Positions 4,421-61,323 of a stretch of DNA of 61,874 nt are shown here, in pieces. Source of the DNA: Synergistaceae bacterium (GTDB taxonomy: Bacteria > Synergistota > Synergistia > Synergistales > Aminobacteriaceae); assembly GCA_017449415.1 (NCBI GenBank), contig JAFSJO010000045.1:1-61874 (forward strand). Reading direction: 5' to 3'. The translations under genes and the position numbers were made by a program. Numbering within the stretch: the stretch's first letter is position 1; each line of letters opens with the position of its first letter. The notes below the pieces were generated by a model. It worked only from the letters and a program-made list of their open reading frames with translations. It was not told where the DNA came from and ran no database searches.

Positions 4421-4441
4421 CCCTCACTCCTAACTCCTCAC
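4421..4441 (-). repeat. Heptamer array (GTGAGGA)(GTTAGGA)(GTGAGGG) overlapping the sbcC stop codon
   Basis: The + strand reads ccctcac tcctaac tcctcac. sbcC ends GTG AGG AGT TAG (..VRS*). Confidence 0.7.
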
Positions 4442-9811: not shown

Positions 9812-9814
9812 GGG
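9801..9814 (+). repeat. Heptamer pair (GTGAGGA)(GTGAGGG) at the nuclease / PP2C gene junction
   Basis: In gcaGTGAGGAGTGAGGGataag, the TGA stop of the nuclease (9809-9811) and the GTG start of the next gene (9808) both lie inside the repeat. Confidence 0.5.
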
Positions 9815-11553
9815 ATAAGAGTATCCTTACTCAGACGGCTTTAATCATCGCCGTGCTTTTCTGTGCCGCTGTTGCCACAAACGGACTCGCGATCTATCAC
9901 AGCGGCTCAGATCTTTATATGTCGGGACTCATTGCCAACAAGCGCAGGCTGACGCATTACGTCGAGAACATGATGAGCAGTTACGCCTCCATCGAGTGGC
10001 TTCTCGATTACTGGCTGGAGAATTACGAAATGATCGACACTGCCAGAGACTTCGGCGACATGCGCAAGTACAATCAGATCCCCTACGACTTTCTAATCAA
10101 TCGAAAGATCATCACGCCCCCCGAAATCGAAAATAATTTGTTGCCCGAGCAGCAGCTGCTCTTCGCTGAGTATTGCTATCGAGAGATCATGACGGAGTAC
10201 GACGAGATCAAGACGATGCTCCAGCCCAATATCCTGTATTGCGTCAGGCCGCTCGAAACTGAAATTAATTCCGCGTTCGTGTTCTTCAACGCCGTGGATA
10301 GGAACATCAACGACGAGTTCATCAAGGAGCAACTCGGGACGATATGGTCTCTTGACATGTCGAAGCACCCAGTCATACGCGACATGTACACGACGGGGCA
10401 GGAGAGCGACGAGTTCGAGCACGTAACCGTCAAGACGCAAGAGATTTTGTACGGCTACATGCCGCTGATCGTTCACGGGAAGATACTTTGCCACATCACG
10501 GCCGCCTTCTTGTGGGACGATGTCCGCAACGCAATCTATGACAGCCTCGTGTCGGTCGAGCTAAAGAATGCGCTCTTGTTGGTCGCGGCGGGGATCATAT
10601 TGACAGCTCTTCTCTACGTCGTGATGCTGAAGCCGCTTGCCAAGGTTCAAAGCAGCGTGAGGGAGTTCACGAGACGAAAGGACAGTGCCTCGATCGTCGA
10701 TGAGCTTGAAACTATCACGTCGCGCAACGAGATCGGGAGGTTGGCTGACGATGTCTCACTGCTCGCTGTAACTCTCGAACAATACAACGAGGAAGCCACG
10801 CGACTGTCCGCCGAGCAAGCTCGTAACAGCACAGAGCTATCTCTCGCGGCAACGATACAGGAGGGGATCCTGCCCAAGGACTTCCCAACCGTCAAAGAGT
10901 TCTCGCTCTACGCGTCAATGAGACCTGCCAAGGAGGTCGGCGGAGATCTCTACGACTTCTTCATGATTGATGACGATCATATCGCGCTGGTGATCGGCGA
11001 CGTGTCCGGCAAAGGGATTTCGGCGGCTCTGTTCATGATGACGGCCAAGACGACGCTGAAAGACTGCGCACTGTCGGGACACGACACAATACAGAACATC
11101 ATAAGGGAAGTTAATGACAAGCTGTGCGAGGGCAACGAAGCGATGTTATTCGTGACGTTGTGGTTTGGGGTCATGACCGTGTCGACGGGGGAGCTTCATT
11201 ACGTGAACGCGGGACACGAGTACCCGGTGTTGAGACGAAGCGGCGAGGAGTTCAAGATCATCAGCGACATTCACGCCCGACCGCTCGCGATCTTGCCCAA
11301 CCTGACATTCGTAACCGGGAGGCTGACGCTCAACGAGGGCGACACGATATTCCTTTACACTGACGGAGTGATCGAGGCGACTAACAAGCTCGATGAACAA
11401 TTCGGAGAGGGAGGACTCGTCGAGGCTCTTAACGAAGTCCCGGACGGCACCCCCGAGGAGCTTGAGAGCGTCGTGTTGAGGAAGCTGAACGAGTTCACGG
11501 GGACTTCATCACAGTTCGACGATGTAACGATGTTATGTTTGAAGCGCAACTAG
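9808..11553 (+). CDS. SpoIIE/PP2C-family serine phosphatase with an N-terminal sensor region, a TM segment and a HAMP-like linker (RsbU-like)
   Basis: 581 aa with two hydrophobic segments and a HAMP-like region after the second TM. The PP2C motifs GGDLYDF, GDVSGKG and LYTDGV are present. Confidence 0.8.
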   Translation: MRDKSILTQTALIIAVLFCAAVATNGLAIYHSGSDLYMSGLIANKRRLTHYVENMMSSYASIEWLLDYWLENYEMIDTARDFGDMRKYNQIPYDFLINRKIITPPEIENNLLPEQQLLFAEYCYREIMTEYDEIKTMLQPNILYCVRPLETEINSAFVFFNAVDRNINDEFIKEQLGTIWSLDMSKHPVIRDMYTTGQESDEFEHVTVKTQEILYGYMPLIVHGKILCHITAAFLWDDVRNAIYDSLVSVELKNALLLVAAGIILTALLYVVMLKPLAKVQSSVREFTRRKDSASIVDELETITSRNEIGRLADDVSLLAVTLEQYNEEATRLSAEQARNSTELSLAATIQEGILPKDFPTVKEFSLYASMRPAKEVGGDLYDFFMIDDDHIALVIGDVSGKGISAALFMMTAKTTLKDCALSGHDTIQNIIREVNDKLCEGNEAMLFVTLWFGVMTVSTGELHYVNAGHEYPVLRRSGEEFKIISDIHARPLAILPNLTFVTGRLTLNEGDTIFLYTDGVIEATNKLDEQFGEGGLVEALNEVPDGTPEELESVVLRKLNEFTGTSSQFDDVTMLCLKRN

Positions 11554-12268: not shown

Positions 12269-13546
12269 CTATTCCCTCACTTCCAACTCGACGGGCAAAT
12301 GTCCCATCGCCTGATCCAAATTCGTCCGCGCGATCTGAGCGTCATACAGTGCCTGATAGAGCGTGTAACGTGAGCTTGCGAGTGTCGAGACAGCGTCGCT
12401 GACCTCCAGCGCAGTTCCTACTCCGACCTCATAGCGGCCTCGTGCGAGAGTCAAATTCTCCTCGGCGTATTGGACGCTCAACTGCGAAGACTTTGCTCGC
12501 TGTGTCGCGTTGGTGAGGGTCAGAGCCGCGCTCCGCAGGTCGTGGGCTATCGTCTGTCGCAAGCTCTCCTCGTCAGCCATGTCCTGATCCAACTGCGCTC
12601 GAGCTGACTCGACTTTCGCCGCCGTCAGTCCGCCGTCATCGACAGGGACGTTGACATTCACAGCGACGGTGTAATCTCTGACTGGTGAAACTCCCTCGTA
12701 CTTTCCCCACTCGCTCCCAACCGAGCCGGTGATCGTCGGAGAGTTCGATCGAGCCGCGGCTTTGATTTCGAGTTCTCTTTGTCTTATCGTGTGAAGTATC
12801 TTTCGATAGTCGGCTCTGTCCGTCATGGCGGTATCCAAGATTTCTTTGATGTCTCCGGCAGGCTTGGGGAGCAGCAGCTCCGTCGAGAGAGCCAAGTCGA
12901 AATCTCCGTAATCGCTCACGCCCATCGCGACCTTCAAGGCTTCCTGCGAGGTCAGAATATCATTCTCGGCCTTTAACACTGACGTTCGAGCTGTCGCTGC
13001 GTCGGCTTCGGCTTTGGTCACGTCGATGAATGAGCTGTTGCCGACCTCATAGATGCCTTTCGCGGTCTCGAGATGTTCTTCGAGGTTAGCGAGTTTCTCG
13101 CGTTCCACGTCCCTGTTAAGAATTTTCAGCACGAGATCATAATAGGCTTTCTTGGCCTCGGCGGCTACGTTGATCTGAGTCTGTCGCTCGCTTTCGAGGA
13201 CCCCGGCTAAGTTTTCGTTTTGGATTTCTAGGTTCAGTTTGTTCACGCCCGTGTCATAGAGAGTCTTCGAGGCTGTGATCCCGAACGTCTGCGAGGTCGA
13301 GCGGCTGTCCCACGTCTGATAATCTCCGGCGAAGCTCGTCCGACCCGTGAGGTTGACCTTGACTCGGTTGGTCGTCTTCGTCTGTTCGATCATCGAGTTA
13401 GCTGCCCGGGTCGCGCCCTTCGACTTTTTCAACGACGGGTGATTAGCCAGAGCCGTATTCAGACACTCTTCGAGCGATAGCCCCGCCGCGCACGCAGACG
13501 ACGCACACAATATCATCATTAACAACGCTGCAATTATTTTTTTCAT
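12269..13546 (-). CDS. TolC-family outer-membrane efflux protein
   Basis: 425 aa with a signal peptide. It has LSLEECLNTALANHPSLK and the two-repeat OEP helical pattern. Confidence 0.85.
   Translation of the reverse strand: MKKIIAALLMMILCASSACAAGLSLEECLNTALANHPSLKKSKGATRAANSMIEQTKTTNRVKVNLTGRTSFAGDYQTWDSRSTSQTFGITASKTLYDTGVNKLNLEIQNENLAGVLESERQTQINVAAEAKKAYYDLVLKILNRDVEREKLANLEEHLETAKGIYEVGNSSFIDVTKAEADAATARTSVLKAENDILTSQEALKVAMGVSDYGDFDLALSTELLLPKPAGDIKEILDTAMTDRADYRKILHTIRQRELEIKAAARSNSPTITGSVGSEWGKYEGVSPVRDYTVAVNVNVPVDDGGLTAAKVESARAQLDQDMADEESLRQTIAHDLRSAALTLTNATQRAKSSQLSVQYAEENLTLARGRYEVGVGTALEVSDAVSTLASSRYTLYQALYDAQIARTNLDQAMGHLPVELEVRE
12274..12287 (-). repeat. Degenerate heptamer pair (GTTGGAA)(GTGAGGG) at the 3' end of the tolC-like gene
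   Basis: The gene ends GTT GGA AGT GAG GGA ATA G in the repeat register, read in frame as ..GAG TTG GAA GTG AGG GAA TAG (..ELEVRE*). Confidence 0.35.
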
Positions 13547-19227: not shown

Positions 19228-19672
19228 CAGATTTTTCCGCTGGGCTTTGTTCTGCGCCGGGATCGTAACGAGCATCTTCGCGGGCTACATGTTCTACATA
19301 GACAATATCGCGGCGGGGGCGGCATGGCTGGCTATGGCGGTGGGGTTTCTGTGCTTTGCTACGAGGATCAGGAACGACTCCGACTCCGATGACTCAGAGA
19401 GCGACGCGCAGACCGACAAGGATCTTCACGATCTCGCTGTGTTGATAGCAGACCTCGCGGTCATGAGCTTGAAAAATATCGGGCGAACAGTTCCCCCGGG
19501 CACAAAGGAAATCGAAGCGATAGAGCATAAACTGAATAATTTTTTGGACTTAATGCCCGTAGAAAAATTAGAAAGGCAGGAGATCAACGAAGAATTTGAC
19601 CGCCTCAAAAACAGAACGAAGCGCAAAGAGAGCGGACGGGCAATCTTCAGTCAATTAGGGATTAGAAATTAA
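19217..19672 (+). CDS. Hypothetical small membrane protein
   Basis: 151 aa with two N-terminal hydrophobic helices, an acidic SDSDDSESD stretch and a charged C-terminus. I recognise no family. Confidence 0.5.
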   Translation: MSIDRFFRWALFCAGIVTSIFAGYMFYIDNIAAGAAWLAMAVGFLCFATRIRNDSDSDDSESDAQTDKDLHDLAVLIADLAVMSLKNIGRTVPPGTKEIEAIEHKLNNFLDLMPVEKLERQEINEEFDRLKNRTKRKESGRAIFSQLGIRN

Positions 19673-19674
19673 GA
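19654..19674 (+). repeat. Heptamer array, ATTAGGR variant: (ATTAGGG)(ATTAGAA)(ATTAAGA), overlapping a stop codon upstream of ftsH
   Basis: The sequence caATTAGGGATTAGAAATTAAGAat contains the TAA stop at 19670-19672. It closely resembles the array at the prfB stop. Confidence 0.55.
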
Positions 19675-32491: not shown

Positions 32492-33781
32492 ATGACTTCA
32501 CAAGGCAAATCCTACAAGGCCGGCATGGCTCTGTATAGATTTTGCGCGGCGATATTCTTCAACTTCGGCGGACTTAGATTTCTGCGGCGCAAATACAAGA
32601 ACGATATCTCAGAGAGGCTCGGCAATGTCTCCGGCGTTACGGAGGGCGCAATATGGATCCACGCTGTCTCGGTCGGCGAGGTTCAGTCGGCCAGCTCCCT
32701 CATACGCAGGATAAAGAGCAAAAGTCCAATGCGCTGCGTGCTATCGACAGTTACGGCGACGGGGCGCGACATGGCATATAGATTGCTGTCCGGGACGGTC
32801 GAGAAAATTTTCTATAGTCCGTTCGACTCAAAAAAATTCGTAACCCGCGCACTCGATAACATAAAGCCCGCTATGTATATCTCAATGGAGACGGAGCTGT
32901 GGCCGGAGATGTTCGCCCAGCTGAAAGCTCGAAACATTCCGTCATTCCTTGCCAACGGAAGAATTTCCGAGAAGAGCTTCAAGAGGCTTCGCCGCACGAG
33001 ATTTTTCTGGCGCGGTGTCCTTGACGCTCTCACGAAGTTGATGGTGCGCTTCAACGAGGATCGAGAGAAATTCATCGCGCTCGGAGTGCCGCCGGAAAAA
33101 ATTTTCGTCACGGGAGATTGCAAGGTCGATGCGCTGCTAGATCGCCGAAAGGTTACAGGCCCGGAGAAATGGGAGTGGCTGAAGAGAGACGAAGCTCCGC
33201 TGTTCGTGGCGGGAAGCACTCATCAGGGCGAGGACGAGATAGTGATCTCGGCGTTTCGTATCGTGAGGAGGAAATTCCCCGGCGCGAGGCTCATAATCGT
33301 TCCTCGACACCCCGAAAGAGCTTTGATGACCGTCGCGTCTGTCCTGCCGTATCCAGAACTGAACGCCGAGCTGTTATCCCGGATCGAAGCCGACAACGAG
33401 AAGTTGAAGACCGCCGACGTTATCGCCGTAGATCGGATCGGAATTTTGTTTGACCTCTACGCGGTTGCTGATGCTGTGTTCATTGGCGGGAGCCTCGTCG
33501 AGAAGGGCGGCCAAAATCCTTTCGAGCCTGCGTTGTTCGGCTTGCCTGCGATCCATGGCCCCTGCATGACGGATTTCCCCGACACTGACCGCATGGACTC
33601 GATGGGCGCGGCTGTCCGCGTGAGCAACGACACCGAACTCGCGAGAGCTTGGGAGGATCGCCTCGATGCCGGAGCTGTGAGCAAAGCTCTGAGGGACTGC
33701 GACGAGTATTTCAAGACCCTCGGGGGCGCGGCCAAGAGGACATGGAACGAGATCGAAGCCTCAATGAACAATGAGGAGTGA
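32492..33781 (+). CDS. waaA: 3-deoxy-D-manno-octulosonic acid (Kdo) transferase
   Basis: 429 aa with IWIHAVSVGEV, a STHQGEDE-type motif and GGSLVEKGGQNPFEPA. Confidence 0.85.
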   Translation: MTSQGKSYKAGMALYRFCAAIFFNFGGLRFLRRKYKNDISERLGNVSGVTEGAIWIHAVSVGEVQSASSLIRRIKSKSPMRCVLSTVTATGRDMAYRLLSGTVEKIFYSPFDSKKFVTRALDNIKPAMYISMETELWPEMFAQLKARNIPSFLANGRISEKSFKRLRRTRFFWRGVLDALTKLMVRFNEDREKFIALGVPPEKIFVTGDCKVDALLDRRKVTGPEKWEWLKRDEAPLFVAGSTHQGEDEIVISAFRIVRRKFPGARLIIVPRHPERALMTVASVLPYPELNAELLSRIEADNEKLKTADVIAVDRIGILFDLYAVADAVFIGGSLVEKGGQNPFEPALFGLPAIHGPCMTDFPDTDRMDSMGAAVRVSNDTELARAWEDRLDAGAVSKALRDCDEYFKTLGGAAKRTWNEIEASMNNEE

Positions 33782-33794
33782 GAAGCCTCACCCC
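33775..33794. terminator. Weak hairpin between the convergent waaA and the 1008-aa ORF
   Basis: GGAGTGAG (33775-33782) pairs with CTCACCCC (33787-33794) at 7 of 8 positions around the tetraloop AAGC. There is no U-run. The right arm is part of the heptamer array. Confidence 0.3.
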
Positions 33795-33805
33795 TAACCC
33801 CTCAC
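33785..33805 (-). repeat. Heptamer array (GTGAGGG)(GTTAGGG)(GTGAGGC) overlapping the stop of the 1008-aa ORF
   Basis: The + strand reads gcctcac ccctaac ccctcac. The ORF ends GTG AGG GGT TAG (..VRG*). Confidence 0.65.
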
Positions 33806-36800
33806 CAAGCAGTCGCTCAACTCCTGACAGATCGCCTTGACCTTGTCAATGTCCTCTTTCTTCACATACTCCGGGTGAGCATGGAAGAGAGGGTTTCTGA
33901 CCCAATGAAGTTTCTCAAAGCGTTCTTTCCAGTACGTCGCGAACGGCTTGCCATCAAAGAACGGCGAGAACGACACCCAATACTGCCCCATGATCGTCCC
34001 AAGCACGTTGATCGGCAGAATGTCAAGAAGCCCCGCGTCGGGGTTGTATTTTTTGCGCGTCTTCGTCAGTGAGTTCTGATACTCCTCAGTGTCGAGGATC
34101 GGGTTAGCTTTCTTCAGCGCGTCATCGAGGTTGTCCGGGCTCGTCCTGAGTATGCTCGGGAGTTCTCTCTTCATGAGGCGGACGATCGTGGACTGAACGC
34201 TCAATATCCTGAAGATCTCCGGCGAGAGCTTCACCTCCGGGTCCAATATGAAGATGTCCTTTCGCGTCGCGTACTCGTCAACGGCACTCTTGATAGCCTG
34301 TTGGAGGTTCGCGTAAATGTTCCCGTCGCTGAGGCTTATCCCGAGTTTTCCAACAGCCGCGCCGGCGTATTCGGGGTTGTATATCATCGAGCGCAGCGTC
34401 GAGTAGAGCATCGGAGCCCCGGCAACGTACCCGAGAGTTAAAAGCCCCTCGAAGAACTTGCTGAAGTCGTTACATTCAAGGAGGCTGCACCCCGCGAGCG
34501 AGACATCTTGCGGCGACCACTTGCCCGTCCTGCTGTGAAATCTCAGGCCGTTCACGAAGTACGAGTAAATATAAATCTTCAGCCACGTGTTATCGTCATC
34601 AATGCGTCGCGCGATCTGAATCTCCTCGGAAATTCTCAACAGGCAATAGCGTCGCGCTGTGTCGTAGTTCTCGTCGTTCTTCTTCGCGCCGTCGAGCTGC
34701 GCGTAGATCAGATACTCCAGACCCTTATACGCCATGATGCGAATGTTCTCTTCCTCGGCTGCTGAGAAAAATCTTATGTCCGTGTCGTCCGCGAGTGCGA
34801 AGAAGTTGTAGACGTAACGCGCAATCAGGAAACACCTGTCGGCTCGTTCGGCGTTGGAGAGGCTCGAGTCCTCGCTGTTGAACTTGCTGATTAGCTGAAG
34901 ATAGTTCGCCTTGACCTCCTTGAAGTGTCCGCGCCTGTAGAATGTGTCGCTCAAAAATTCCGTGCTGCATCGCCCGGCGACCGACACGCTCAAAATTTTA
35001 TCCTGCAGGAACTTCGGAAGCTCGTTGAACGTCTCGACACCTTTCTGACTCTGCTCGTGGATTTTATTCTGAGACGGCTGAACCTGTTGGCTCTCGCCCG
35101 GGTCGTAAGGCTCCAAAGGAACGTAGCCGCGGTTGATAAGCTCGTCGATCTCGGGAGATATGTTCCAGTCGTTGCCTTCGCCTTTGCCCTCTTCGTCAAG
35201 CGGCAAGTTCATTTTGATCTTGGCTTTCTCGATCAGTCCGCCGTCAGTCCAAGCCTTGACCTTGTCATCGGGGAATGGCACCGCCGACTCGATGTTATGG
35301 ATCTGTATCTTGTCGTTGAGTACGCCGCGAGTGAAGCGCACCGGGTGTCCCTCAGCCGACGGAGAATATTCAAGGAAGACCATGAGCAACGGATCCGAGA
35401 CGTTATTCTCGTTGAATGTGAACAGCTCGCCGGTCTTCGTCCTGACCTTGCCGAACGGGATATCGTCATGCCGCCGATAAAAATCTATCTCGCCCTCCTC
35501 CGACAGAGCCGACTGCATGTCGACCTTTAATACATTCTCGATGTCGTAATTCTTCTCGCGGACATCGAACGCCGCCGGGCCGAGCGTGTTGTTGCCGAGT
35601 CTGAACGTAACTTTCAACAGCGGGTGCATCTTCTTGCCAACGAGGAGCTTTCGTCTCAGCTCGCGATCCTGAATTTGATTGAAGTGTACGAAGACGGAGT
35701 TTTCAGAACTTAGCGGGATATTATATTTTTTCAGCAGAGGACACTTGATGAAGCCGAATAGTTTGTCTCTGTTGAGATTAAAAAATTCAAACTCGCCCTC
35801 AAATCTATGCGTGCTCCAATCTATCCGGGGCGCGGGGTCTTCGGCGGGCGCGGAGTTCTCTTTCTCGGAAAGTTTTATAGCGTCGGTGATGATCTTATCG
35901 TCAGACGGCCGTGTGTCGAGCCACTCACGCAACGCCTTGATGTTCTCCTCCGTGAACAGCCGCTCTTTATTCGGCCAAGCTGAGAAGCTCAGAACTTTCC
36001 ATGACAGCGCAGCGACGTGACTAAACTCAACCTCGCTATCGTCCTTTATCGCGTTGTCGAGTATCCACTTCAGCACCGAGACAAGCTGAGGCGGCTCGAG
36101 CTTCAGGAACGTAGCGAAATTCTTCGGGGTTAAAGGTTCGCTGACCGCGATACAGGCACTCGCTAGGAACTTCGACGCGGCAGTTGACGAAGCCATGAAC
36201 GCGCCGTGGAAGTCGTGAATTTTCATGTAAAGTTTCACGCTCTTCTCGCTCTCGCCGGTGAGATAAAGGACGAAGGCGTAAATCTCGGACGCGGCTATGA
36301 TAGTTTTATTGGCTTTCCATAGCTGGTGAGCTGTGTCGCGGATCTCGCGCATACGCATAGAGTACGGTCTGTCCTCGTGAGCTTTCACGGCGTACTGATA
36401 CTTCGTTAAGATACTCTCGATTATGCTCTGGATTTTGCTCTGTCCTTTCGTCCGGAATTTTCTCACGTAGTCGGCGTTGAGTGTGTAGGTCTCCAAGGTC
36501 TCGCGCATATCGCCAAAGATTTTTTCGAGGTTCTCGTTAAACATAACAACTTTAGGCTCGGGCTTGGCCTCAACGACTGGAGCAGGAGCTGTAGCTGTCG
36601 CTGGAGCTGAGACCGGGACAGGCGCGGGGGCTTTCTCCTCCGTTGCGGCTCCGGGTATCGGCTTAACGCCCCATATCATTGGATACACCCAAAGTTCATC
36701 GCCCAACGCTATATGATCATCTTCACAGCCTAAAAGGATCCCGGAGGTCTTTCTGCCGTCCGGCATCAGCATAATCTCAATGTTCTTTCCAAGATATTGT

Positions 36801-36820
36801 TCGAGATGTTTACGATCCAA
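33794..36820 (-). CDS. Large uncharacterised protein: Sm-like N-terminal barrel, Pro/Ala linker, helical region, two cold-shock-like OB folds, helical repeat region and a C-terminal Swt1-type HEPN domain
   Basis: 1008 aa with a TTG start at 36820, 9 nt after AAGGGAG. Residues 339-421 read GEFEFFNLNRDKLFGFIKCP..SVFVHFNQI..GPAAFDV. Residues 441-511 form a degenerate second copy. Residues 930-1005 contain HWVRNPLFHAHPEY (R975-N-x3-H980). There is no P-loop and no TM. Confidence 0.7.
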   Translation of the reverse strand: MDRKHLEQYLGKNIEIMLMPDGRKTSGILLGCEDDHIALGDELWVYPMIWGVKPIPGAATEEKAPAPVPVSAPATATAPAPVVEAKPEPKVVMFNENLEKIFGDMRETLETYTLNADYVRKFRTKGQSKIQSIIESILTKYQYAVKAHEDRPYSMRMREIRDTAHQLWKANKTIIAASEIYAFVLYLTGESEKSVKLYMKIHDFHGAFMASSTAASKFLASACIAVSEPLTPKNFATFLKLEPPQLVSVLKWILDNAIKDDSEVEFSHVAALSWKVLSFSAWPNKERLFTEENIKALREWLDTRPSDDKIITDAIKLSEKENSAPAEDPAPRIDWSTHRFEGEFEFFNLNRDKLFGFIKCPLLKKYNIPLSSENSVFVHFNQIQDRELRRKLLVGKKMHPLLKVTFRLGNNTLGPAAFDVREKNYDIENVLKVDMQSALSEEGEIDFYRRHDDIPFGKVRTKTGELFTFNENNVSDPLLMVFLEYSPSAEGHPVRFTRGVLNDKIQIHNIESAVPFPDDKVKAWTDGGLIEKAKIKMNLPLDEEGKGEGNDWNISPEIDELINRGYVPLEPYDPGESQQVQPSQNKIHEQSQKGVETFNELPKFLQDKILSVSVAGRCSTEFLSDTFYRRGHFKEVKANYLQLISKFNSEDSSLSNAERADRCFLIARYVYNFFALADDTDIRFFSAAEEENIRIMAYKGLEYLIYAQLDGAKKNDENYDTARRYCLLRISEEIQIARRIDDDNTWLKIYIYSYFVNGLRFHSRTGKWSPQDVSLAGCSLLECNDFSKFFEGLLTLGYVAGAPMLYSTLRSMIYNPEYAGAAVGKLGISLSDGNIYANLQQAIKSAVDEYATRKDIFILDPEVKLSPEIFRILSVQSTIVRLMKRELPSILRTSPDNLDDALKKANPILDTEEYQNSLTKTRKKYNPDAGLLDILPINVLGTIMGQYWVSFSPFFDGKPFATYWKERFEKLHWVRNPLFHAHPEYVKKEDIDKVKAICQELSDCLVRG

Positions 36821-36849: not shown

Positions 36850-36863
36850 GGAGTTAGGAATGA
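36850..36863 (+). repeat. Partial heptamer copy GGA(GTTAGGA)ATGA between purL and the 1008-aa ORF
   Basis: tatGGAGTTAGGAATGAtg lies in the 50-nt spacer, antisense to both flanking genes. Confidence 0.35.
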
Positions 36864-36870
36864 TGAATTG

Positions 36871-39800
36871 CTAACGAAAATATTCGACGGCTGAGTCAAA
36901 AAATTTCATTCCGTAGTTGCCCGGGACGTTCCGATAGAGGCCAAGGCCGACGCGCTCGACGTGTCCCATGCGCCCTATGATCCGTCCGTCCGGCGAAGTC
37001 AGACACTCAACAGCTCCGAAAGATCCCGAGGGATTGTATTGCGTCTCCATTGAGGGATTGCCATCGAGATCGACATATTGCCCTGCGACCTGTCCTGAAG
37101 TCATGAGCTGCTCGAACGTTGAAGCAGAACACGCAAAACGACCCTCGCCGTGCGAGATCGGGATTGAATACACCTCGCCGACGTTTGTCTGACGGAGCCA
37201 AGGCGAATAATTGGCAATGACACGCGAGTGAATTATCCTCGACTGGTGGCGGCCGATCCTGTTGAATGTCAGCGTCGTGGGCAGCTCGTCAGGCTCACAG
37301 AACTTTCCAAGCGGCAACAGTCCCGTCTTCACGAGAGCTTGAAAGCCGTTGCAGATCCCGCAGACTAGACCGCCGCGAGCGTCAATCAGACTTTCAAGAG
37401 CTTCACGGACGGCCGGGCTTCGTAGGAAGATCGCAATGAACTTCCCTGACCCGTCAGGCTCGTCGCCATTCGAGAAGCCTCCCGGCAACACGAGAGCCTG
37501 CGAACCTCTCAGAGCGTCGGCAAAATCTTCGGCGGATCTCTTCATCAGCTCGGGGGTCAGGCTCTTCACGACGAAGATTTCGGGCTTTCCCCCGGCTTTC
37601 TCAATCGCTTTCGCGGTCTCGTACTCGCAGTTCGTCCCGGCAAAGACGGGGATCAAAAATTTCGGAGCTGAAACGCGGGTTGGCGATGAATGATGCTGTG
37701 GCTCTCGCGTCGCTTCCACATTCGTTATCGTGTCTGCTGGCGCGACCGTCGGGAAAATTTTTTCGAGCGGAGCGTCGTAAGCCTTTTCGGCCTCGGCCAA
37801 GTCGATTGTCTCGCCGCCAAAAATTATTTCGGGTGTCGCGAGGACATGGCCAAGCTCTGGGAAATTTTCAGCTCCGTCGTCGGCAATTTCAATAATGAAT
37901 TTTCCGCGACCATCATCGAGATCGAGCCTCGAAAACTCGAAGCCGAGACCGTTGCCCAAGCACATTTTGAAGACGGCGGCTCTGACTCCCCCGAACGTCG
38001 GCACGGCGCACGCAAGGATCTTCCCACGAGAGTTCAGCTCGTTGACCGTGTCAAAAATTTTCAGCATGGAAGCTCTCTCGGGCAGTCCGCGCTCATCGTA
38101 ATCAGGTTCGAGCAAGATCACCTTCGAGCCTGCGCGTTTGAACTCCGGCGAAAGAATTTTCTTCACGTCCGTTACAGCCACCGCGAAAGATATCAACGTC
38201 GGCGGGACATCGAAATTTCTCCCCTCGCTGTCGGTGAATGAGCCGCTCATTGAGTCCTTACCGCCGATCGCCGCAACGTCGAAATCCAACTGAGCTTTCA
38301 AAGCTCCGAGCAACGCTCCGAACGGAAGCCCCCACCTCTCGGAATCGTCCCCGGGCTTGCCGAAATATTCTTGGAACGTCAGCCAGCAGTTAGCTAACCC
38401 GGCTCCCGCCGCCGCGACCTTACAAAGAGACTCGAGGACTGCGACATAAGCTCCCTCGAAAGTGGATCGCTCGGAGATATAAGGATCGAAGCCCCATGAC
38501 ATCACTGAGCAGGTTTCAGTCTCGTGAAGTCCGACGGGAATTTTCGCCGCCATCGCCTGAGCCGGGGTCTTCTGAAATTTTCCGCCGAACGGCATCAGTA
38601 CGCTGTGCGCTCCGACGGTCGAGTCGAACCTCTCAGCCAGCCCGCGCTTTGAACAGACATTGAGATCAGTGAGTGGTGAGGGGTTAGAGGTGATGGGGTC
38701 TCCGACTCTCACGCTGATGTGCCTCGAAGCTCCGTTGCTGTTGATGAACTCGCGGGATAAATTCACGATCTCACGGCCTCGCCATGTCATCTTCATTCGT
38801 CCTGAGGCATTGACGCGAGCTATGACGGTTGCTTGAACGTCTTCGGCGAGTGCCAAATCTTTCACGCGCTCCGTGTCCTCAGCCGCAACCACGACAGCCA
38901 TACGCTCCTGAGACTCGCTGACGGCGATTTCTGTTCCGTCGAGCCCGGCATATTTCAAGGGCACAGCGTCGAGATTTATATCGAGTCCGTCCGCAAGTTC
39001 GCCGACCGCGACACTGACTCCTCCTGCGCCGAAGTCGTTGCAGCGTTTGATTAGTTTCGTGAAGTTGGGATTTCTGAAAAGTCTTTGAAGCTTTCTCTCC
39101 TCGGGTGCGTTGCCTTTCTGAACCTCCGCGCCTCTGGTCTCGATGAAGCTCGAATTGTGCGAGACTGACGAGCCTGTCGCGCCTCCGATACCGTCCCGAC
39201 CCGTCCGGCCTCCCAACAGCAAGATTAAATCACCGTCCGAAGGTCTCTCGCGTATCACGTTAGCTTCCGGGACTGCCGCGATCACCGCCCCGACCTCCAT
39301 GCGCTTGGCCTTGTAACCCTCGTGATATATCTCGTCGACCAGCCCCGTAGGTATTCCGATCTGATTTCCGTATGAGCTGTAGCCTGCGGCGGCTTTGGTG
39401 ATGATTGCTCGCTGTGATAATTTCCCCGACATCGTTGGCTCGAAAGGACTTGCCGCGCCCGTGATCCTCATAGCCTGATAGACATAAGCGCGACCGGATA
39501 GAGGGTCTCGGATTGCCCCGCCGATACACGTAGCCGCGCCCCCGAAAGGTTCGATCTCGGTCGGGTGGTTGTGGGTCTCGTTCTTGAACAGCAACAGCCA
39601 CGACTCGATCGCGCCGTCGACATCGACGTTAATCCTGACTGTGCAGGCGTTGTTCTCCTCGGAGCTTACGAGAGCGGGGAGCTTGCCTTTCGACTTCAGA
39701 TACTTCGCGCCTATCGTAGCGATGTCCATGAGAGTTACGGGTCTGTCTTCGGGATAGCCAAGCTCCTTGCGGATCGACAAATAATTTTCGTAGACTTCCA

Positions 39801-52210: not shown

Positions 52211-52241
52211 AACTCCTAACTCCTCACTCCTAACTCCTCAC
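52211..52241 (-). repeat. Longest heptamer array: (GTGAGGA)(GTTAGGA)(GTGAGGA)(GTTAGGA)GTT between flagellin and argF
   Basis: The + strand reads aac tcctaac tcctcac tcctaac tcctcac. The flagellin TGA stop (52238-52240) lies in the first unit, and the array ends 18 nt before the argF ATG. Confidence 0.75.
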
Positions 52242-54082
52242 TGAAGCAGAAGTCCCATGATGTTCTGCGAGTTCTGGTTGGCTTGCGCGAGCATTGAGTT
52301 TCCCGTGCCGTTCAATATTTGAAGCTTTATGAACTCCATGTATTCTTTCGCCATGTCAGCATCTTTCAATCTGCTCTCAGCCTCTTGCATGTGCTTGCTT
52401 GTCTGGGTTAGGCTGTTGGCGTTGTATTCGAGTTCGTTCTGGTATGAGCCGATCTTCGCACGCTGTGAGCCGACCTTGTGGATCGCCGAGTCGAGCAGCG
52501 TTATGGACTCCGAAGCCCGCGCCCGCGTCGACACGTCAACACGATTAAGGCCAAGAGCTTTCGCTCTCATGTCGCCGATGTTGATGTAGATGTCCTCGCC
52601 GACGTTTTGGCCGATCTGGAATGACGTACTGCGATCATCAATATGAACGATCGTGCTGTAGTCCTCGGCTTCGTTTTGGATCACGTAACGCTTCGTTGTC
52701 TCGTCCCACACTGATCTGACGTTCGCCATAGCGTCGAATGTGATCCCGATGTTGGGGCTGATGACCCCGTCGACTCTGTTGCCGTCCGTCGCGAGATTTT
52801 CGGCGATAGCTTTGCCAGTGTGAGCGTCGTAGATCGACATTGAGAAAATATTTTCCTCGGCCTCCTGTATCGTGTTGAGGTTGAGGGCGTTTATGAGGTC
52901 GTTATTCTCGGACGTGAACGTGAGCTTTCCGTCAGCTCCGGCGATCGCGCTTCTGATTACAAGCGTAGCTTTCGTGGTCGTAACCTCGTCGCGGAATGAC
53001 AACAGCTCTTCGAGATCTTCAGCTTCGTAGTCGCCATAATCGCCCGGAGTGATCTCCTGCGGAGTCCCGAACTGATTTAATATTAATTGCCCGTAAGTCG
53101 CGCTTCGCGTGTCAATGTCTCGCAGATATGCCCGGCTGTAGACGGTCTCGGAGTATCTCACAGCCTCCGACGTGTCCGGCGCGCCGCTCGCAACAGAGCA
53201 GAAATTCTCGCGGTTATCGGCGTAGCTCAACTGTCCCAGATCGTCAGCTATGGCATTGTTGATCTTTCGGCTGACATCGTAGAGAGTGTCTTCAGCATAC
53301 AACACGACCTCGGCGGTCTTGCCGTCTCCCTGAATGATCTGAATTTTCTGAGGCTCGTTCATTATGAAAGCTCCGCTGTTGTCTTTCATGGCTGTCATGT
53401 CGCGCAAGGTTGCCGCCCTCTGTCGCGTCCTCATGACGTGAACAGTATCGCCGTCCGCCGCAGTCTCCTCGGTCAGGTACTCCTCCGACACTTCAAGCTC
53501 AAAGATATTTGACTTTTGAACTTCAGCCTTGCCGGCCTTCGCGGAGATTTCGATTTTGTAATTTCCGGCGGTGTTCTTTCTCTGTCCGAACTGGTCTAAA
53601 GATGTGACGGCTCCGCTGACGCTAAGCGAGACTTTCTCATCGTCCGACGACCATATAGCCGACGAGCTGCCGTCTAAGAGTCTTTTACAGTTGAATGTCG
53701 TGTTGGAAGCTATGTTGTCTATGTTGTCGCGAAGCTCATCAATTTCAAGCTGTATGTAGCTTCGATCCTGCGTGGTCAGAGAGTCGTTGGCCGACTGCAC
53801 AGCAAGCTCTCTCATTCGTTGAAGCATTGAGTTAATCTGATTCAAAGCCCCCTCCGCCGTCTGAAGCATTGAGATACCGTCCTGCGAGTTCCTGATGGCG
53901 CGGTCGACCCCGGCAATCTGCGCCGAGATGTTCATACCCATCGCGAACCCTGCGGCATCATCAGCGGCTGTGGCTGCCCTAAGCCCTGTTGAAAGCGCGC
54001 GCGAGGTGTTCTCAATCGCTTTATTAGTCGCGGTCAGGGCATTATAAGCCATTCTTATGGTGTTGCCCGTTCCTATCATCAT
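52238..54082 (-). CDS. fliC: Flagellin with a very large central variable domain
   Basis: 614 aa. The N-terminal domain (..LSTGLRAATAADDAAGFAMGMNISAQIAGVDRAIRNSQDGISMLQTAEGAL..) and the C-terminal domain (..RAKIGSYQNELEYNANSL..MAKEYMEFIKLQIL..) are conserved. About 385 residues in between are non-conserved. Confidence 0.85.
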   Translation of the reverse strand: MMIGTGNTIRMAYNALTATNKAIENTSRALSTGLRAATAADDAAGFAMGMNISAQIAGVDRAIRNSQDGISMLQTAEGALNQINSMLQRMRELAVQSANDSLTTQDRSYIQLEIDELRDNIDNIASNTTFNCKRLLDGSSSAIWSSDDEKVSLSVSGAVTSLDQFGQRKNTAGNYKIEISAKAGKAEVQKSNIFELEVSEEYLTEETAADGDTVHVMRTRQRAATLRDMTAMKDNSGAFIMNEPQKIQIIQGDGKTAEVVLYAEDTLYDVSRKINNAIADDLGQLSYADNRENFCSVASGAPDTSEAVRYSETVYSRAYLRDIDTRSATYGQLILNQFGTPQEITPGDYGDYEAEDLEELLSFRDEVTTTKATLVIRSAIAGADGKLTFTSENNDLINALNLNTIQEAEENIFSMSIYDAHTGKAIAENLATDGNRVDGVISPNIGITFDAMANVRSVWDETTKRYVIQNEAEDYSTIVHIDDRSTSFQIGQNVGEDIYINIGDMRAKALGLNRVDVSTRARASESITLLDSAIHKVGSQRAKIGSYQNELEYNANSLTQTSKHMQEAESRLKDADMAKEYMEFIKLQILNGTGNSMLAQANQNSQNIMGLLLQ

Positions 54083-57513: not shown

Positions 57514-58425
57514 ATGAATATCTTTGAGAGAATGTTAAACACGCAAGCGTTGATGTTCGTCTACGTTGTTACGGGCATTATAATGGCAAAGACGAAAATT
57601 TTGAAGCACGAGGGACGCTCCAGCTTCATTAATCTTCTGTTGGACATCACGCTGCCGTGCATGATATTAAATTCCTTTAACGTTGACGCAGATATCAATC
57701 AGCTAATCGCCGCCGGCGAGATCATGATCATCTCTTCGGTGTGTTTCGTCATCGCGTGGCTGTCGGGAAAAATTTTTTGGCGCAAAGCTCCCAAGGAACG
57801 CCGAGCCGTCTTGGAGTTCGCAACGCAGTTCTCCAACGCAGGCAACGCAGGCTTGCCAATCGTCGCGGCTGTCTTCGGAGCTGAAGGAGTCTTCTACGCG
57901 TCGTTCTATCTCATGCCCGTGAGAATTTTAATTTGGACGGCGGGGCTGTCGCTGTTCGTCGAGGGCGAGAGCTTCAAAGACAAGATCAAAATCCTGTTGA
58001 AGACTCCAAGCCTCGATGTCGTGTTCGTGGGTCTGGTGCTGATGTTCCTGCCCTTCAAGCTCCCGAGCGTACTCTCCACGGCCATAAAGAACATGGGCGA
58101 CATGACCGGCCCTCTCTCGATGATGATCATCGGCGCGGCGTTGGGCGAGTCGAACCTCCGAGACGCTCTCGACGTTGACGCTTTCAAATTAACTTTCGTG
58201 AGGTTAGCTGTCCAGCCATTGATGTATCTCTTCTTGCTTCGAGCTGTCGGAGTGCCGGACATTCTGTGGCAGGTTACAGTGGTGCTGACGGCGATGCCTG
58301 CGGCGGCTAACACGGAGATCATAGCCGAGATGTATGGCAAAGATTACAAGTTCGCGGCTCGCTGCGTCGTGGTCTCGACGATCGTGTCGTTGGTCAGCGT
58401 CCCGCTCTTGACGTTGCTGTTCTGA
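57514..58425 (+). CDS. AEC (auxin efflux carrier) family transporter
   Basis: 303 aa from ATG 57514 (MNIFERMLNTQALMFVYVV..), polytopic. The track ORF from 57424 reads through the repeat element. Confidence 0.8.
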   Translation: MNIFERMLNTQALMFVYVVTGIIMAKTKILKHEGRSSFINLLLDITLPCMILNSFNVDADINQLIAAGEIMIISSVCFVIAWLSGKIFWRKAPKERRAVLEFATQFSNAGNAGLPIVAAVFGAEGVFYASFYLMPVRILIWTAGLSLFVEGESFKDKIKILLKTPSLDVVFVGLVLMFLPFKLPSVLSTAIKNMGDMTGPLSMMIIGAALGESNLRDALDVDAFKLTFVRLAVQPLMYLFLLRAVGVPDILWQVTVVLTAMPAAANTEIIAEMYGKDYKFAARCVVVSTIVSLVSVPLLTLLF

Positions 58426-58437
58426 GTCTCCAATCCC

Positions 58438-58462
58438 TCATTCCTAATTCCTAATCCCTAAT
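58438..58462 (-). repeat. Left arm of the 25-bp perfect inverted repeat (ATTAGGR heptamer array) upstream of prfB
   Basis: tcattcctaattcctaatccctaat is the exact reverse complement of 59617-59641. A further degenerate unit (ccctcat) extends the array leftwards. Confidence 0.8.
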
Positions 58463-58513
58463 CGAATATGTGCTATGATTTTGTGAAAAAATTTGAAAGG
58501 CAATATATTTTTC

Positions 58514-59621
58514 ATGTTAAACGACATCAACACAAAATCAGAACTGGAAGAACTGCGCGGCCTCGTTCAGACTGTGCAGGACAGCCTTTGACCTTGACGC
58601 TCTGAGCAGCCGCTCGAAAGAACTGACGGAGCAGACTTCCAAGCCGGACTTCTGGAACTCACAAGGGCGCGAGGATATCCTGAGGGAACTTTCGCAAGTC
58701 AACTCGCGGCTCGAGAACTGGAAGCGAATAAGCTCCGACTATGAAGACCTCCTGACACTCGAAGAGCTTCTTAATGAAAGCGGCGATCCCGAACTCGAAA
58801 CAGAATTTTCTCAAAACCTCACGAAGCTTCGCGAGGAGCTTGAACGTGCGAGCCTGCTCTTGCTTCTCAACGAGGAACACGACAACGCGAACGCCATCTT
58901 GATGATCCATGCGGGCAGCGGCGGACTCGACTCGCAAGACTGGGCGGGAATGTTGCTGCGAATGTACCTGCGTTACTGCGAGCGCGAGGGGTTCAAAGCC
59001 AACGTCATCGAGGCGACGGCTGACGAGGGCGAGGGCATCAAGAACGCTACCGTCATGATCACGGGCGATTACGCTTACGGATTTTTGAAGGCCGAACGGG
59101 GAGTTCACAGGCTCGTGAGGATCTCGCCATTCGACTCGGCGCACAGACGACACACGAGCTTCGCCTCCGTCCTCGTGTCCCCGGAGTTCTCCGACGATGT
59201 AGACATTGAGGTCAAGCCCGAAGATTTGAAGGTCGACACGTTCAGAGCCAGCGGCGCGGGAGGTCAATACGTCAACAGGACAGACTCGGCCGTAAGGATC
59301 ACGCACATACCGACGGGCATCGTCGTAACATGTCAGAACGAACGTTCACAGCTCATGAACCGTCAAACAGCTCTGCACGTTTTGAAGAGCCGGCTTTACG
59401 AGCTTGCGCTGCAGGAACGTCAGCAGGAGCTTGATTCGATCGTCGGCGACAAGAAAGAGTCAACGTGGGGCAGCCAGATCCGCAGCTACGTGCTTCACCC
59501 GTACACGCTCGTGAAAGATCACAGGACGAACTTCGAGAAAGGAAACATTCAAGCAGTCCTCGACGGAGACATCAACGAGTTCATCATGGAATTCTTGCGA
59601 CAGAAAGCCAGAAACAATTAG
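58514..59621 (+). CDS. prfB: Peptide chain release factor 2, requiring a programmed +1 frameshift (58514..58588 joined to 58590..59621)
   Basis: Frame 0 gives MLNDINTKSELEELRGLVQTVQDSL, then an in-frame TGA. The +1 frame continues DLDALSSRSKELTEQTSKPDFWN..HAGSGGLDSQDW..SPF..RASGAGGQYVNRTDSAVRITH.. Confidence 0.9.
58586..58592 (+). other. RF2 autoregulatory +1 frameshift site CTT TGA C
   Basis: CTT lies at 58586-58588, TGA at 58589-58591 and C at 58592. A weak SD-like AGGA lies 5 nt upstream. Confidence 0.85.
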
Positions 59622-59641
59622 GGATTAGGAATTAGGAATGA
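59617..59641 (+). repeat. Right arm of the 25-bp perfect inverted repeat: (ATTAGGG)(ATTAGGA)(ATTAGGA)ATGA
   Basis: It contains the prfB TAG stop (59619-59621) and the RBS-like AGGA plus the ATG (59638) of the next gene. Confidence 0.8.
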
Positions 59642-61323
59642 AAGCTCTGAAAAATTTTTGCTCATTAGTCTTTGTTATGTTGCTCGTGTGCGGCGCGGCC
59701 TGCGCTGAAAATTTTGTCCCCGAGCAGCCTTTGATGTATGCCGACGAGCTGAGACCCGGAATGACGGGTTACGCTCTCACCGTGTTGCGAGGCACTGAGC
59801 CGGAGAAGATGCCCGTGAAGATTGTAAGCGTTATCCCGCAGAGAGCCAGCGCGGTCATGACGGAAAAAATTTTGATAAAGTTCACGGGGAAGCACAGACT
59901 TGCGCAAGGCATGAGCGGCTCGCCCGTGTTCGTGAAGAATAAGCTCGTCGGAGCGATCCGAAGCGGCTGGGACAACAGCGATCAATCTTTCGCCATCGTA
60001 ACGCCGATCGAAGCCATGCTCAGAATTTTTAACGGTGAGGAGTTAGGAGTGAGGGGTGAGGAGTTGAAGAAGCTCAACGTCTCAGTGACGGGGCTTGGCG
60101 CGAACTCGCTGCCTCGGCTCAGCAAGGCTCTTGGCCTCAACGTAACTCAGGGTGTCGCGTCAGGAGCCGGGTCGCTCGAAGTCAGAAACGAAAATTTCAG
60201 GCCGGGCGAAGCTGTGGCGGCGTTGCTCGCGTGGGGTGATGTCGAGATCTCCGCGTCAGGTACGATAACCGCGACCGCTAAGGACGGAAAATTTTTGGCG
60301 TTCGGTCATGATTTTCTCAATCGCGGCAGGACAGTTTACCCGGCGGCGAAAGTTTTTGTTCATGAGACGGTCGACAGCTACTCGTTCCCTTTCAAGATCG
60401 CTAGCCCGGTCTCTATCAACGGGATCATCACGCAGGATCGCGAGGCGGCTATCGGAGGTCGCGCAGGAGTTTTCCCACCGTCATTTTCGGCGGAGCTTAA
60501 CTTCAAAAATCTCGACACCAACAGACAGAACAGATACAGCTTTCGAGTCGTGGCTGATGAGTTTCTGACGGCCAACCTGATCGAGGAGATTTACAAAGGT
60601 CTCATAGCTGAAGCATGGGGGCGCAAGGGTCAAGGCACGATGGACGTGAGCCTCCGTATCGAGGGCAGGAACATCAGGAACGGTTTCGCGAGGCGCGATA
60701 TATTCTTCTCGGACGAAGATATCGTTGAAGAGGCTTTCGGCGACACCGCCGAGATGATCGGAATGTACCTGACACAGCCATTCACTGAGACGATGCCGTC
60801 GGGATTTGTCTTGAACGTCGAAGCTACGGAGCGGCCAAAAGTTTTGAGGATCGAGGACGTTGAGACCGTCGCTAAGGCCAAGCCCGGAGATGAGATCGAC
60901 GTTAGAATAAAGCTGCGCGAGTGGCGAGCCGGGACAACTGAAAAGGTCGTGAAGATGAAGATCCCAGAGAGAGCCTCCGGAAGTCTAACTTTAATCGTGC
61001 GCGGCGGTAACGTTGAGCCAATGACTCAGCTTGCTATCGAGGACGGCTCGAAGTCCGTTGACAGCCTCGAAAGAATGTTGACGGAGCTAAAGGCCGCTGA
61101 TGCGGGCAACGAGTTAATAATCGAGCTTAACGGTGATCTCGTCGGCGAGGTGCTGAAAAAAGTTCTCAACGATGACGAGGCCAAGAACGAAGCTTCAGAG
61201 CCTGAGTCGGAGTTCCTCAGCGAGATGAAAGAGCGACGTATCGACGAGGGGACACTGAAAATTTTCGGGACTGATTTCTTCGTCGACGGCATGATGAGAC
61301 GGGTTATAGACGTGGAGAAGTGA
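59638..61323 (+). CDS. Secreted SpoIVB-type (peptidase S55-like) serine protease domain protein
   Basis: 561 aa with a signal peptide and a GMSGSPVFV serine motif near the N-terminus. The remainder is unassigned. Confidence 0.55.
   Translation: MKALKNFCSLVFVMLLVCGAACAENFVPEQPLMYADELRPGMTGYALTVLRGTEPEKMPVKIVSVIPQRASAVMTEKILIKFTGKHRLAQGMSGSPVFVKNKLVGAIRSGWDNSDQSFAIVTPIEAMLRIFNGEELGVRGEELKKLNVSVTGLGANSLPRLSKALGLNVTQGVASGAGSLEVRNENFRPGEAVAALLAWGDVEISASGTITATAKDGKFLAFGHDFLNRGRTVYPAAKVFVHETVDSYSFPFKIASPVSINGIITQDREAAIGGRAGVFPPSFSAELNFKNLDTNRQNRYSFRVVADEFLTANLIEEIYKGLIAEAWGRKGQGTMDVSLRIEGRNIRNGFARRDIFFSDEDIVEEAFGDTAEMIGMYLTQPFTETMPSGFVLNVEATERPKVLRIEDVETVAKAKPGDEIDVRIKLREWRAGTTEKVVKMKIPERASGSLTLIVRGGNVEPMTQLAIEDGSKSVDSLERMLTELKAADAGNELIIELNGDLVGEVLKKVLNDDEAKNEASEPESEFLSEMKERRIDEGTLKIFGTDFFVDGMMRRVIDVEK
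60035..60062 (+). repeat. Heptamer array (GTGAGGA)(GTTAGGA)(GTGAGGG)(GTGAGGA) inside the S55-like gene, sense orientation
   Basis: It is read in frame as ..GEELGVRGEEL... A variant fifth unit, GTTGAAG, avoids the TAG stop. Confidence 0.55.

Follow-up and report, generated by a model that had tools for sequence, protein, structure and literature searches.

Tandem heptamer arrays at gene ends of a Synergistaceae genome, probable arms of an intervening-sequence-type hairpin cassette

Heptad arrays in the window

The stretch of DNA analyzed here (the window) is the 61,874-nt contig JAFSJO010000045.1 of Synergistaceae bacterium GCA_017449415.1. It is contig C25 of G000, our handle for this 1.9 Mb metagenome-assembled genome (MAG) in 155 contigs. 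Between a flagellin gene and argF the window carries a tandem array of seven-base units (heptads), and related arrays of the general form (RTKAGGR)n lie at the ends of several other genes. We consider it rather probable that these arrays are arms, or terminal inverted repeats, of an intervening-sequence (IVS)-type hairpin cassette, most of whose copies are gene-less hairpins and solo arms at gene 3' ends. The sites in the window are as follows.

52211-52241, minus strand: solo G-rich arm, (GTGAGGA GTTAGGA)x2 + GTT, running from the flagellin stop towards argF
4421-4441, minus strand: G-rich arm of 3 units that contains the sbcC stop codon
33771-33805, unstranded: pair of short facing arms with convergent genes on either side
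33771-33784, plus strand: 2-unit arm that terminates a 429-aa gene
33785-33805, minus strand: 3-unit arm that contains the stop of a 1008-aa open reading frame (ORF)
58435-58462, minus strand: ATTAGGR-type arm of 4 units, antisense to both flanking plus-strand genes
59617-59641, plus strand: 3 units + ATG, with the TAG stop of prfB within unit 1
60035-60065, plus strand: 4 units + GTT in the sense direction within an S55-like ORF, translated as GEELGVRGEEL in a variable linker
38669-38696, plus strand: degenerate 4-unit arm, antisense within purL, translated as PITSNPSPLT
9801-9814, plus strand: 2-unit stub GTGAGGA GTGAGGG running over the TGA of the SNase gene and the GTG of the gene after it, of uncertain membership
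19654-19674, plus strand: ATTAGGG ATTAGAA ATTAAGA before ftsH, a weak look-alike

Tandem Repeats Finder (TRF) reports period-7 arrays in the window at 4417-4442, 33786-33806, 52211-52242, 58432-58463, 59616-59639, and 60035-60064. It describes 52211-52242 as a 14-nt unit in 2.2 copies with 100% matches. A scan for three RTKAGGR units with at most one mismatch gave nine matches, which make up six arrays, against 0.00 expected from 100 dinucleotide shuffles. A preliminary description, made from the sequence alone, had listed a dispersed family of arrays with 7-nt periodicity, and these counts bear it out. Its gene names (flagellin, OTCase, SbcC, PurL, S55-like, RF2, and SNase) were confirmed by profile search. 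Its list of sites holds for the six strong arrays. The site at 19654-19674 belongs to a coding C-terminus, and the 2-unit match at 36853-36866 is, like 9801-9814, near chance level; genome-wide, 2-unit matches with at most one mismatch per unit are just about 1.7 times as frequent as in simulations. A further site that it had listed, 12274-12287, was not recovered in the scan.

In the array that gave rise to this work, the flagellin stop (TGA) sits within unit 1. The argF start lies 21 nt past the last unit and has its own ribosome-binding site, AAAGGAG. As RNA, the array is unstructured (z +0.84).

Genome-wide anatomy of the arrays

Exact (RTKAGGR)n arrays with n≥2 occur 366 times in G000, as compared with about one in third-order Markov simulations. 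Period 7 is the dominant class of tandem repeat in this genome, with 414 of the 1316 TRF rows, and a further 101 rows have period 14. Most exact arrays have four units (185 arrays, against 55 with three and 10 with five), and their length has its mode at about 31 nt. The borders are fixed: an A stands before (GTKAGGR)4, and GTK and then a run of A follow. The sharp mode at four copies and the fixed borders suggest a discrete element rather than a product of slippage. No longer conserved element was found past the flanking A, the array, GTK, and the A-run; the 3' flanks AAAGAC and AAAGCTC are enriched merely about 3-fold. Within the unit, positions 3 (G/T) and 7 (A/G) are free to vary and the AGG core is 94-100% conserved. 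The K and R variants are mixed inside single arrays, and 154 of 232 four-unit arrays have distinct sequences. A recent burst from a master copy was considered and rejected, as identical pairs exceed the null only modestly (170 vs 93±17).

Positions relative to genes were tabulated with our own hexamer-based gene caller, which gave 1865 genes and 93% coding sequence; it has no term for the ribosome-binding site, so distances to start codons are approximate. Outside called genes lie 308 of the 361 arrays tabulated. The upstream gene is on the same strand (sense) for 227 arrays and on the opposite strand (antisense) for 76. The stop codon is inside the array in 115 of the 227 sense cases and 0-12 nt before it in another 97, 212 in total. 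Gaps between convergent genes hold 62 arrays and those between divergent genes 12, where the genome has 172 and 167 such gaps, respectively. The next start is found at -7 to +10 nt from the array in 32 of 157 co-directional cases. Solo arrays in co-directional gaps are sense in 104 cases and antisense in 23 (p 2e-13). In all, about 19% of gene ends carry an array. The bias towards gene ends and towards one orientation that had been proposed for the window is thus real in the genome. It is not absolute: the arrays at gene ends had been said to be always sense, and 58435-58462 is antisense, as are the 76 counted above. It had also been stated that a GTGAGGAGTTAGGA dimer closes all three reading frames. 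Two frames close within the dimer, and the third closes only in the next one.

Many arrays are paired. A facing inverted partner of at least 2 units within 150 nt accompanies 132 of the 361 arrays, always with the G-rich arm first; the back-to-back order was seen twice. Facing arms are not exact complements, and an arm of the GTKAGGR type can stand opposite one of the ATTAGGR type. The folding energy of an 'empty' arm-loop-arm hairpin is -43 kcal/mol (z -5.7). Comparing the minimum free energy of each array plus 60 nt with that of shuffles was uninformative, since a purine array finds a partner in any sequence that contains pyrimidines; counts of exact complements and partner arrays took its place. 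A T-rich tail follows about 20 of the 269 arrays that pair with downstream sequence. With T-runs so rare after array hairpins, intrinsic terminators were rejected as an explanation for the class; single loci, for example h264, do conform to one. At two unrelated loci of G000, C51:24717-24817 and C128:3396-3499, the hairpin modules have a homologous loop of about 48 nt. This shared loop opens with an ATG directly 3' of the G-rich arm (MKRQKSHVADELNNH... and MTRQKSHVVDERTRAN...). A module may thus have been duplicated as a whole, perhaps together with a mini-ORF.

A PF05635 gene between two arms

G000 has exactly one PF05635 gene, at C32:11321-11683, which encodes 120 aa. The family match covers C32:11366-11674 with 102.6 bits (cut-off 33.8). 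The protein also matches TIGR02436 with 114 bits (cut-off 24) and the structure PDB 2RLD with an E value of 3e-39. TIGR02436/PF05635 is the "23S rRNA intervening-sequence protein" family (S23p, Avd-like), a four-helix bundle, here called IVP. The gene is enclosed by two arms, at C32:11691-11718 and 11278-11305. On its 5' side the TAG of the upstream gene lies within the four-unit G-rich arm, and the ATG of the PF05635 gene follows 4 bases later. On its 3' side a four-unit C-rich arm begins 15 bases past the stop and, on the opposite strand, provides the stop of the convergent gene. The joined arms fold with -49.2 kcal/mol (z -7.5) into a stem of about 28 bp.

The same arrangement is found in relatives. 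G023 has one orthologue of the G000 gene (72% identity, reciprocal best hit), between arms in the repeat dialect of G023; the termini of its cassette are CAGGTAGGA...TCCTACCTG. G003 and G006 carry a different PF05635 clade between arms of 5-8 NNTAGTG heptads. The G003-type protein has a weak match to NF033474 DivGenRetAVD (40 bits, cut-off 80). Among metagenome loci with homologues of 64-73% identity, both arms are present in 52 of 57 distinct loci. A typical arm repeats AATTAGG, AATGAGG, or AGTTAGG 4.0-4.7 times; the 5' arm reaches up to the ATG, and the 3' arm starts from the stop. In 52 of the 52 loci with arms, the stop of an upstream sense ORF lies at -11 to +21 nt of the 5' arm; the 52 loci represent about 11 independent site contexts.

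In one locus of G003 (L137, C115, 156-2306), and also in one of G006 (L138), a 716-aa ORF for a Mod-type DNA methyltransferase is open through the whole cassette. It is open in a frame other than that of the cassette gene; the cassette thus sits inside a coding gene without breaking it.

The cassettes lie between protein-coding genes and not in a 23S rRNA helix, the site that defines an IVS. The assemblies are MAGs without rRNA operons. In the 23S gene of G023 (assembled model positions 15-2044) we found no insert and no array; the 23S gene of G000 is unassembled. The 16S tail is ordinary, ...CACCTCCTTTC. An ORF with the RNase III signature ERLEFLGD is present on C38 of G000.

Relatives, dialects, and turnover

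Arrays of four AGG-N4 units are abundant in a subset of the genus: 293 matches in G000, 234 in G023, 189 in G010, 164 in G063, 142 in G002, and 128 in G046. Most of the remaining genomes have none or have long perfect classical repeats. The latter, for example (AGGAGTC)n≥10, (AGGTCGC)n, and (AGGCACA)n, are long heptamer microsatellites in genomes without 4-unit degenerate arrays and belong to a separate, slippage-type regime with the same period. In G023 (43% GC, 400 kb analyzed) the arrays show the same 4-unit mode and the same sense-at-stop placement, with the units GGTAGGA, GTTAGGA, ATTAGGA, and AGTAGGA. TAGTG arrays number 86 in G006, 24 in G003, 12 in G049, and 5 in G047, with a few in four more genomes; 38 of the 48 genus genomes searched have none. 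Each of the six genomes in which PF05635 was matched belongs to the 14 of 48 that are rich in arrays (hypergeometric P ~2e-4, own calculation). The match in G047 is degenerate. For the four intact copies of the gene, the dialect of the arms matches the repeat dialect of the host genome.

G000 and G023 were compared over 147 adjacent gene pairs with a median amino-acid identity of 85%. Both genomes have an array in 14 of these syntenic gaps, G023 only in 10, G000 only in 7, and neither in 116. The discordant gaps differ in length by 30-76 nt. Complete arm-loop-arm modules (60-95 nt including loops) separate genes whose counterparts in the other species overlap (ATAATG). Whole modules are therefore present or absent between orthologous gene pairs, an outcome of the comparison of orthologous loci that had been proposed for the window. 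The orthologous cassettes of G000 and G023 are at different loci. Where G000 has its cassette, all that G023 has is a mini-hairpin with arms of about 1.5 units each. Where G023 has its cassette, G000 has no array, and the TAG of the G023 arm is matched in position by the host stop (TTGA) of G000. Of the three readings first offered for the window, that of a small mobile repeat is in essence upheld by these empty or nearly empty orthologous sites.

The linker between purL domains shows how solo arms can arise. In G010 both arms are translated in this linker, in G023 the G-rich arm is left, and in G000 only the C-rich arm (38669-38696). Array-free genomes have an unrelated linker. This pattern shows an old in-frame insertion, inherited vertically, of which different arms were lost in different lineages.

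Origin of the arrays

The explanation that we favor connects the solo arrays with the cassette. The complete element consists of a G-rich arm of about four GTKAGGR heptads, the gene for the 120-aa four-helix bundle, and a complementary C-rich arm. It sits right at the stop of a host gene that reads in the same direction. Its 5' arm ends the reading frame of the host and gives the cassette gene its Shine-Dalgarno (SD) motifs and its ATG. As RNA, the two arms can pair in a stem of about 28 bp, which RNase III may cut as it does in 23S rRNA. Most of the approximately 350 copies in G000 would be gene-less derivatives, either 'empty' arm-loop-arm hairpins (about 37% of arrays) or solo arms that remain when one arm is lost. 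The G-rich arm beside the stop would preferentially be kept because it now is the host's stop codon or the ribosome-binding site of the next gene, and an arm that cannot be lost in this way would account for the predominance of solo sense arms at stops. The pentameric S23p-type protein may be the reader of the heptads. A miniature inverted-repeat transposable element would have terminal inverted repeats, a target-site duplication, and an autonomous partner that encodes a transposase. Terminal inverted repeats are present here, along with a gene-bearing partner whose protein is no known transposase.

Several observations weigh against this explanation. Neither G000 nor G023 has a known transposase, a RAYT (the transposase associated with repetitive extragenic palindromic, REP, sequences), or a reverse transcriptase, so no mechanism of mobility can be named. 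The PF05635 gene was not detected in the array-rich genomes G010, G046, G002, and G011 (74-88% complete) or in G051 (97%). Solo arrays make up about 63% of all arrays, and their origin by loss of an arm is seen directly for purL only. With 154 of 232 four-unit arrays distinct, nothing points to a master copy that has recently multiplied in a burst. Array positions are conserved between G000 and G023 (14 of 24 G023 arrays, odds ratio 23, p 1e-8), and the orthologous arrays bear the unit variants of each species. Conserved positions and species-specific variants fit a selected host function or ongoing homogenization no less well than a selfish element. No target-site duplication could be made out in the three filled/empty comparisons, at about 75% nucleotide identity between the species compared.

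The same positional conservation is what an RNA element selected by the host would show. Such an element, a purine-rich SD-like array on its own or together with its complement, would act in the mRNA at gene 3' ends or between cistrons, by closing all frames, holding the 30S subunit for re-initiation, stabilizing the message, or ending and processing the transcript, and the PF05635 gene would be a mere passenger. The tight placement on stop codons, the sense bias of solo arrays (104 vs 23), the abutment of 32 of 157 arrays on the next start at SD spacing, and the fivefold excess of arrays in convergent over divergent gaps all agree with it. So do two loci at which a canonical terminator of G023 takes the place of an array hairpin of G000. 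On the other hand, T-runs follow only about 20 of 269 array hairpins, the array at 52211-52241 is unstructured, and the next start is in most cases over 10 nt downstream, with a ribosome-binding site of its own. An SD-like sequence is not the common denominator either, since sister genomes have TAGTG heptads, which contain no SD core, and Alistipes loci have AATTGAG and AAAACGG. Arrays also lie in frame within genes, and the invariable flanking of PF05635 genes by arms is left unexplained. We regard a host-selected element as unlikely on balance. The stop-and-restart cassette of the preliminary description is supported in part: the host stop is inside 115 of 227 sense arrays, the cassette gene receives its SD motif and ATG from the arm, and the next start abuts the array in the 32 cases above. 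Against it stand the 62 arrays between convergent genes and the distance of most downstream starts, which exceeds 10 nt.

Polymerase slippage, seeded at junctions of a stop codon with an SD sequence (TAGGAG, TGAGGAG) and tolerated there, would make the arrays ordinary simple sequence repeats (SSRs). The unit is indeed a stop codon overlapping an SD sequence, copy number differs between orthologous arrays, other genomes of the genus have long perfect (AGGAGTC)n and (AGGTCGC)n, and heptamers are the commonest class of long SSR in prokaryotes according to Mrazek 2007 as summarized in PMC4679880. Slippage would predict a decay of copy number and not a sharp peak at 4 units, and it accounts poorly for unit variants mixed within arrays, for the obligatory facing geometry of inverted pairs (132 vs 2), for modules of 60-95 nt gained or lost whole with their loops, for arrays between convergent genes, and for the association with PF05635 across taxa. 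We regard it as very improbable. Still less probable is a platform for CsrA or another GGA-reading RNA-binding protein that would define a post-transcriptional regulon, as had been suggested from the array beside flagellin. There are four GGA motifs per array and G000 has a csrA gene (C143:12163-12315). However, in a search that covered csrA but not fliW, csrA scores the same in the array-free genome G014, the TAGTG-dialect genomes have no GGA in their heptads, and the array is found at the 3' end of the flagellin gene instead of in the leader. CsrA sites would be expected to present GGA in loops at a spacing of about 10 nt or more; here the spacing is 7 nt and the motifs are outside hairpin loops. 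The known sites, as far as they are described in PMC4679880, are spaced wider. Arrays at about 19% of all gene ends also fit a regulon poorly; no functional theme is apparent among these genes, and none was looked for. Finally, REP or REPIN elements mobilized by a RAYT (a Y1 HUH transposase) share with the arrays the hundreds of extragenic copies, the inverted pairs that form hairpins, the species-specific sequence variants, and the long positional persistence. The arms are tandem heptads and not imperfect palindromes, and no member of the RAYT family PF01797 is present in G000, G010, G046, or G023, the last of which is 100% complete. This leaves a REP or REPIN origin with hardly any probability. 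Retro-mobility and a diversity-generating retroelement (DGR) were rejected, as the reverse transcriptase family PF00078 is absent from G000 and G023.

A wider form of the cassette explanation is possible, and we put it forward tentatively, as something that is more doubtful than the cassette origin itself. The homopentamer may recognize the sequence of its own arms, each protomer taking about one heptad, which would make the protein a 'ruler' of 4-5 units. Protein and arms would then form an unrecognized class of self-propagating element without known transposase or reverse transcriptase, which in many phyla colonizes stop codons, helices of rRNA, and even linkers within ORFs and is the main source of the bacterial excess of heptanucleotides. 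The approximately 350 arms would be a protein-addressable tag on a fifth of the transcripts of G000.

Comparison with known systems

REP/REPIN elements with their RAYT and the Rickettsia palindromic elements (RPEs) are short extragenic palindromes with hundreds of copies, located near gene 3' ends and persisting vertically. Like RPEs, some copies in G000 are in frame and translated (in purL and the S55-like gene). The differences are that G000 has no RAYT, that the arms are tandem heptads, and that the associated gene encodes a four-helix bundle without known catalytic role. The short tandemly repeated repetitive sequences (STRRs) of cyanobacteria are considered here together with the heptamer repeats of the TAACTGA type.

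TAACTGA repeats themselves have been described in marine Beggiatoaceae and some Cyanobacteria and Bacteroidetes (MacGregor 2015, PMC4679880). Both they (2-6 heptamers) and the present arrays are spread genome-wide, lineage-specific, intergenic, oriented with genes, patchy among close relatives, and of unknown function, and both have stop codons in the unit. TAACTGA sets are mostly just upstream of start codons, where they replace the SD sequence, whereas the G000 arrays are on stop codons. One indirect repeat was seen in 169 TAACTGA sets and no link to a gene was made; a third of the G000 arrays are facing pairs, with a cognate gene between two such arms. With the heptanucleotide long SSRs (Mrazek et al. 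2007, as summarized in PMC4679880) the arrays share the period of 7, the over-representation, and the mostly non-coding location. They differ in the copy number fixed near 4, in the degenerate K and R positions, and in the inverted pairs, which slippage alone would not lead one to expect.

The closest parallel is the S23p/PF05635 IVS of 23S rRNA, found in Coxiella burnetii, Leptospira, and Xanthomonas, whose origin and mobility are unknown (PMC4990558). In Coxiella, the element has a 28-bp terminal stem, and three tandem GACAGAT heptamers and a degenerate fourth stand before the S23p ORF; the number of heptamers varies between strains, and RNase III cleaves in the stem. The S23p protein of Xanthomonas is a homopentameric toroid (PMC4990558). 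The G000 cassette likewise has a small four-helix-bundle ORF, terminal inverted repeats on either side that can pair to a stem of about 28 bp, and a 5' arm of tandem heptamers that reaches the ORF start as in Coxiella. Unlike the rRNA elements, it is placed on a stop codon between protein-coding genes, and it is accompanied genome-wide by about 350 gene-less hairpins and solo arms, some of which are translated within ORFs. PF05635 is also the Avd-like family of DGRs (PMC10053308). In contrast to DGR Avd, there is no reverse transcriptase in G000 or G023, and no pair of template and variable repeats was seen.

The feature is real and highly non-random. Its pieces (IVSs, heptanucleotide repeats, TAACTGA repeats) are known; our literature search found no work that connects the three. 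Two puzzles that are decades old meet here. In many prokaryotes no other simple repeats are as over-represented as those of seven nucleotides, and the intervening sequences of 23S rRNA encode an S23p/Avd-like protein without known function or origin. G000 joins them by having four-heptad cassette arms together with hundreds of gene-less arms, in a dialect that follows the clade of the gene. This opens the questions of whether the pentamer binds heptads, of what moves the cassette, and of whether the arms affect translation termination, re-initiation, or RNase III processing at about a fifth of the genes. For annotation it matters that arms supply stop and start codons, alter the length of protein ends, and are translated inside genes.

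Individual sites and minor observations

The facing arms at 33771-33805 form only a weak GUGAG/CUCAC hairpin on folding. The 1008-aa ORF that ends there (33794-36820) has no Pfam match at E≤1e-5.

Two arrays bracket prfB. The first, 58435-58462, is 9 nt past the stop of the Mem_trans gene and immediately 5' of a promoter-like region of prfB; G010 has an arm at the same position. In the second, 59617-59641, the S55-like gene starts at the ATG that ends the array, and an AGGA lies 7 nt upstream of it. The counterpart of this array in G010 is a 4.5-unit arm, which makes RF2 longer by 5 aa. The stretches 58438-58462 and 59617-59641 are exact 25-nt inverted complements, 1154 nt apart. Their order is back-to-back, which is rare, and the mRNA has the C-rich arm before the G-rich one. 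At each of the two orthologous places G010 has an arm as well. It is conceivable that a long-range stem encloses the whole prfB message. The prfB gene has the usual CTT TGA C programmed +1 frameshift site at 58580-58595, which is why the ORF listing splits it (a start near 58515 and a second frame at 58860-59621). The Mem_trans gene (auxin-efflux-carrier type, 57514-58425) and its upstream spacer are missing at the syntenic place in G010. The segment 57310-58463 measures about 1155 nt here and 47 nt in G010, and the indel ends at the antisense array.

At the place of 60035-60065 within the S55-like gene, G010 has a degenerate copy and G011 none, while the linker length is constant. The look-alike at 19654-19674 encodes the conserved C-terminus QLGIRN* of the upstream gene, which makes it a weak or proto member of the family; in the relative at locus L026 its counterpart is extended to a clearer array. 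Further afield, unrelated ftsH loci of Bacteroidota (Alistipes/Rikenellaceae, L067-L077) have several distinct array families of about 4.5 copies, with the heptads AATTGAG, AAAACGG, GCCATTA, and AGGAGAT, within 13 kb. Coleofasciculus loci have STRR-like heptamers, and an Anaerolineaceae locus has TAATCCC x4.

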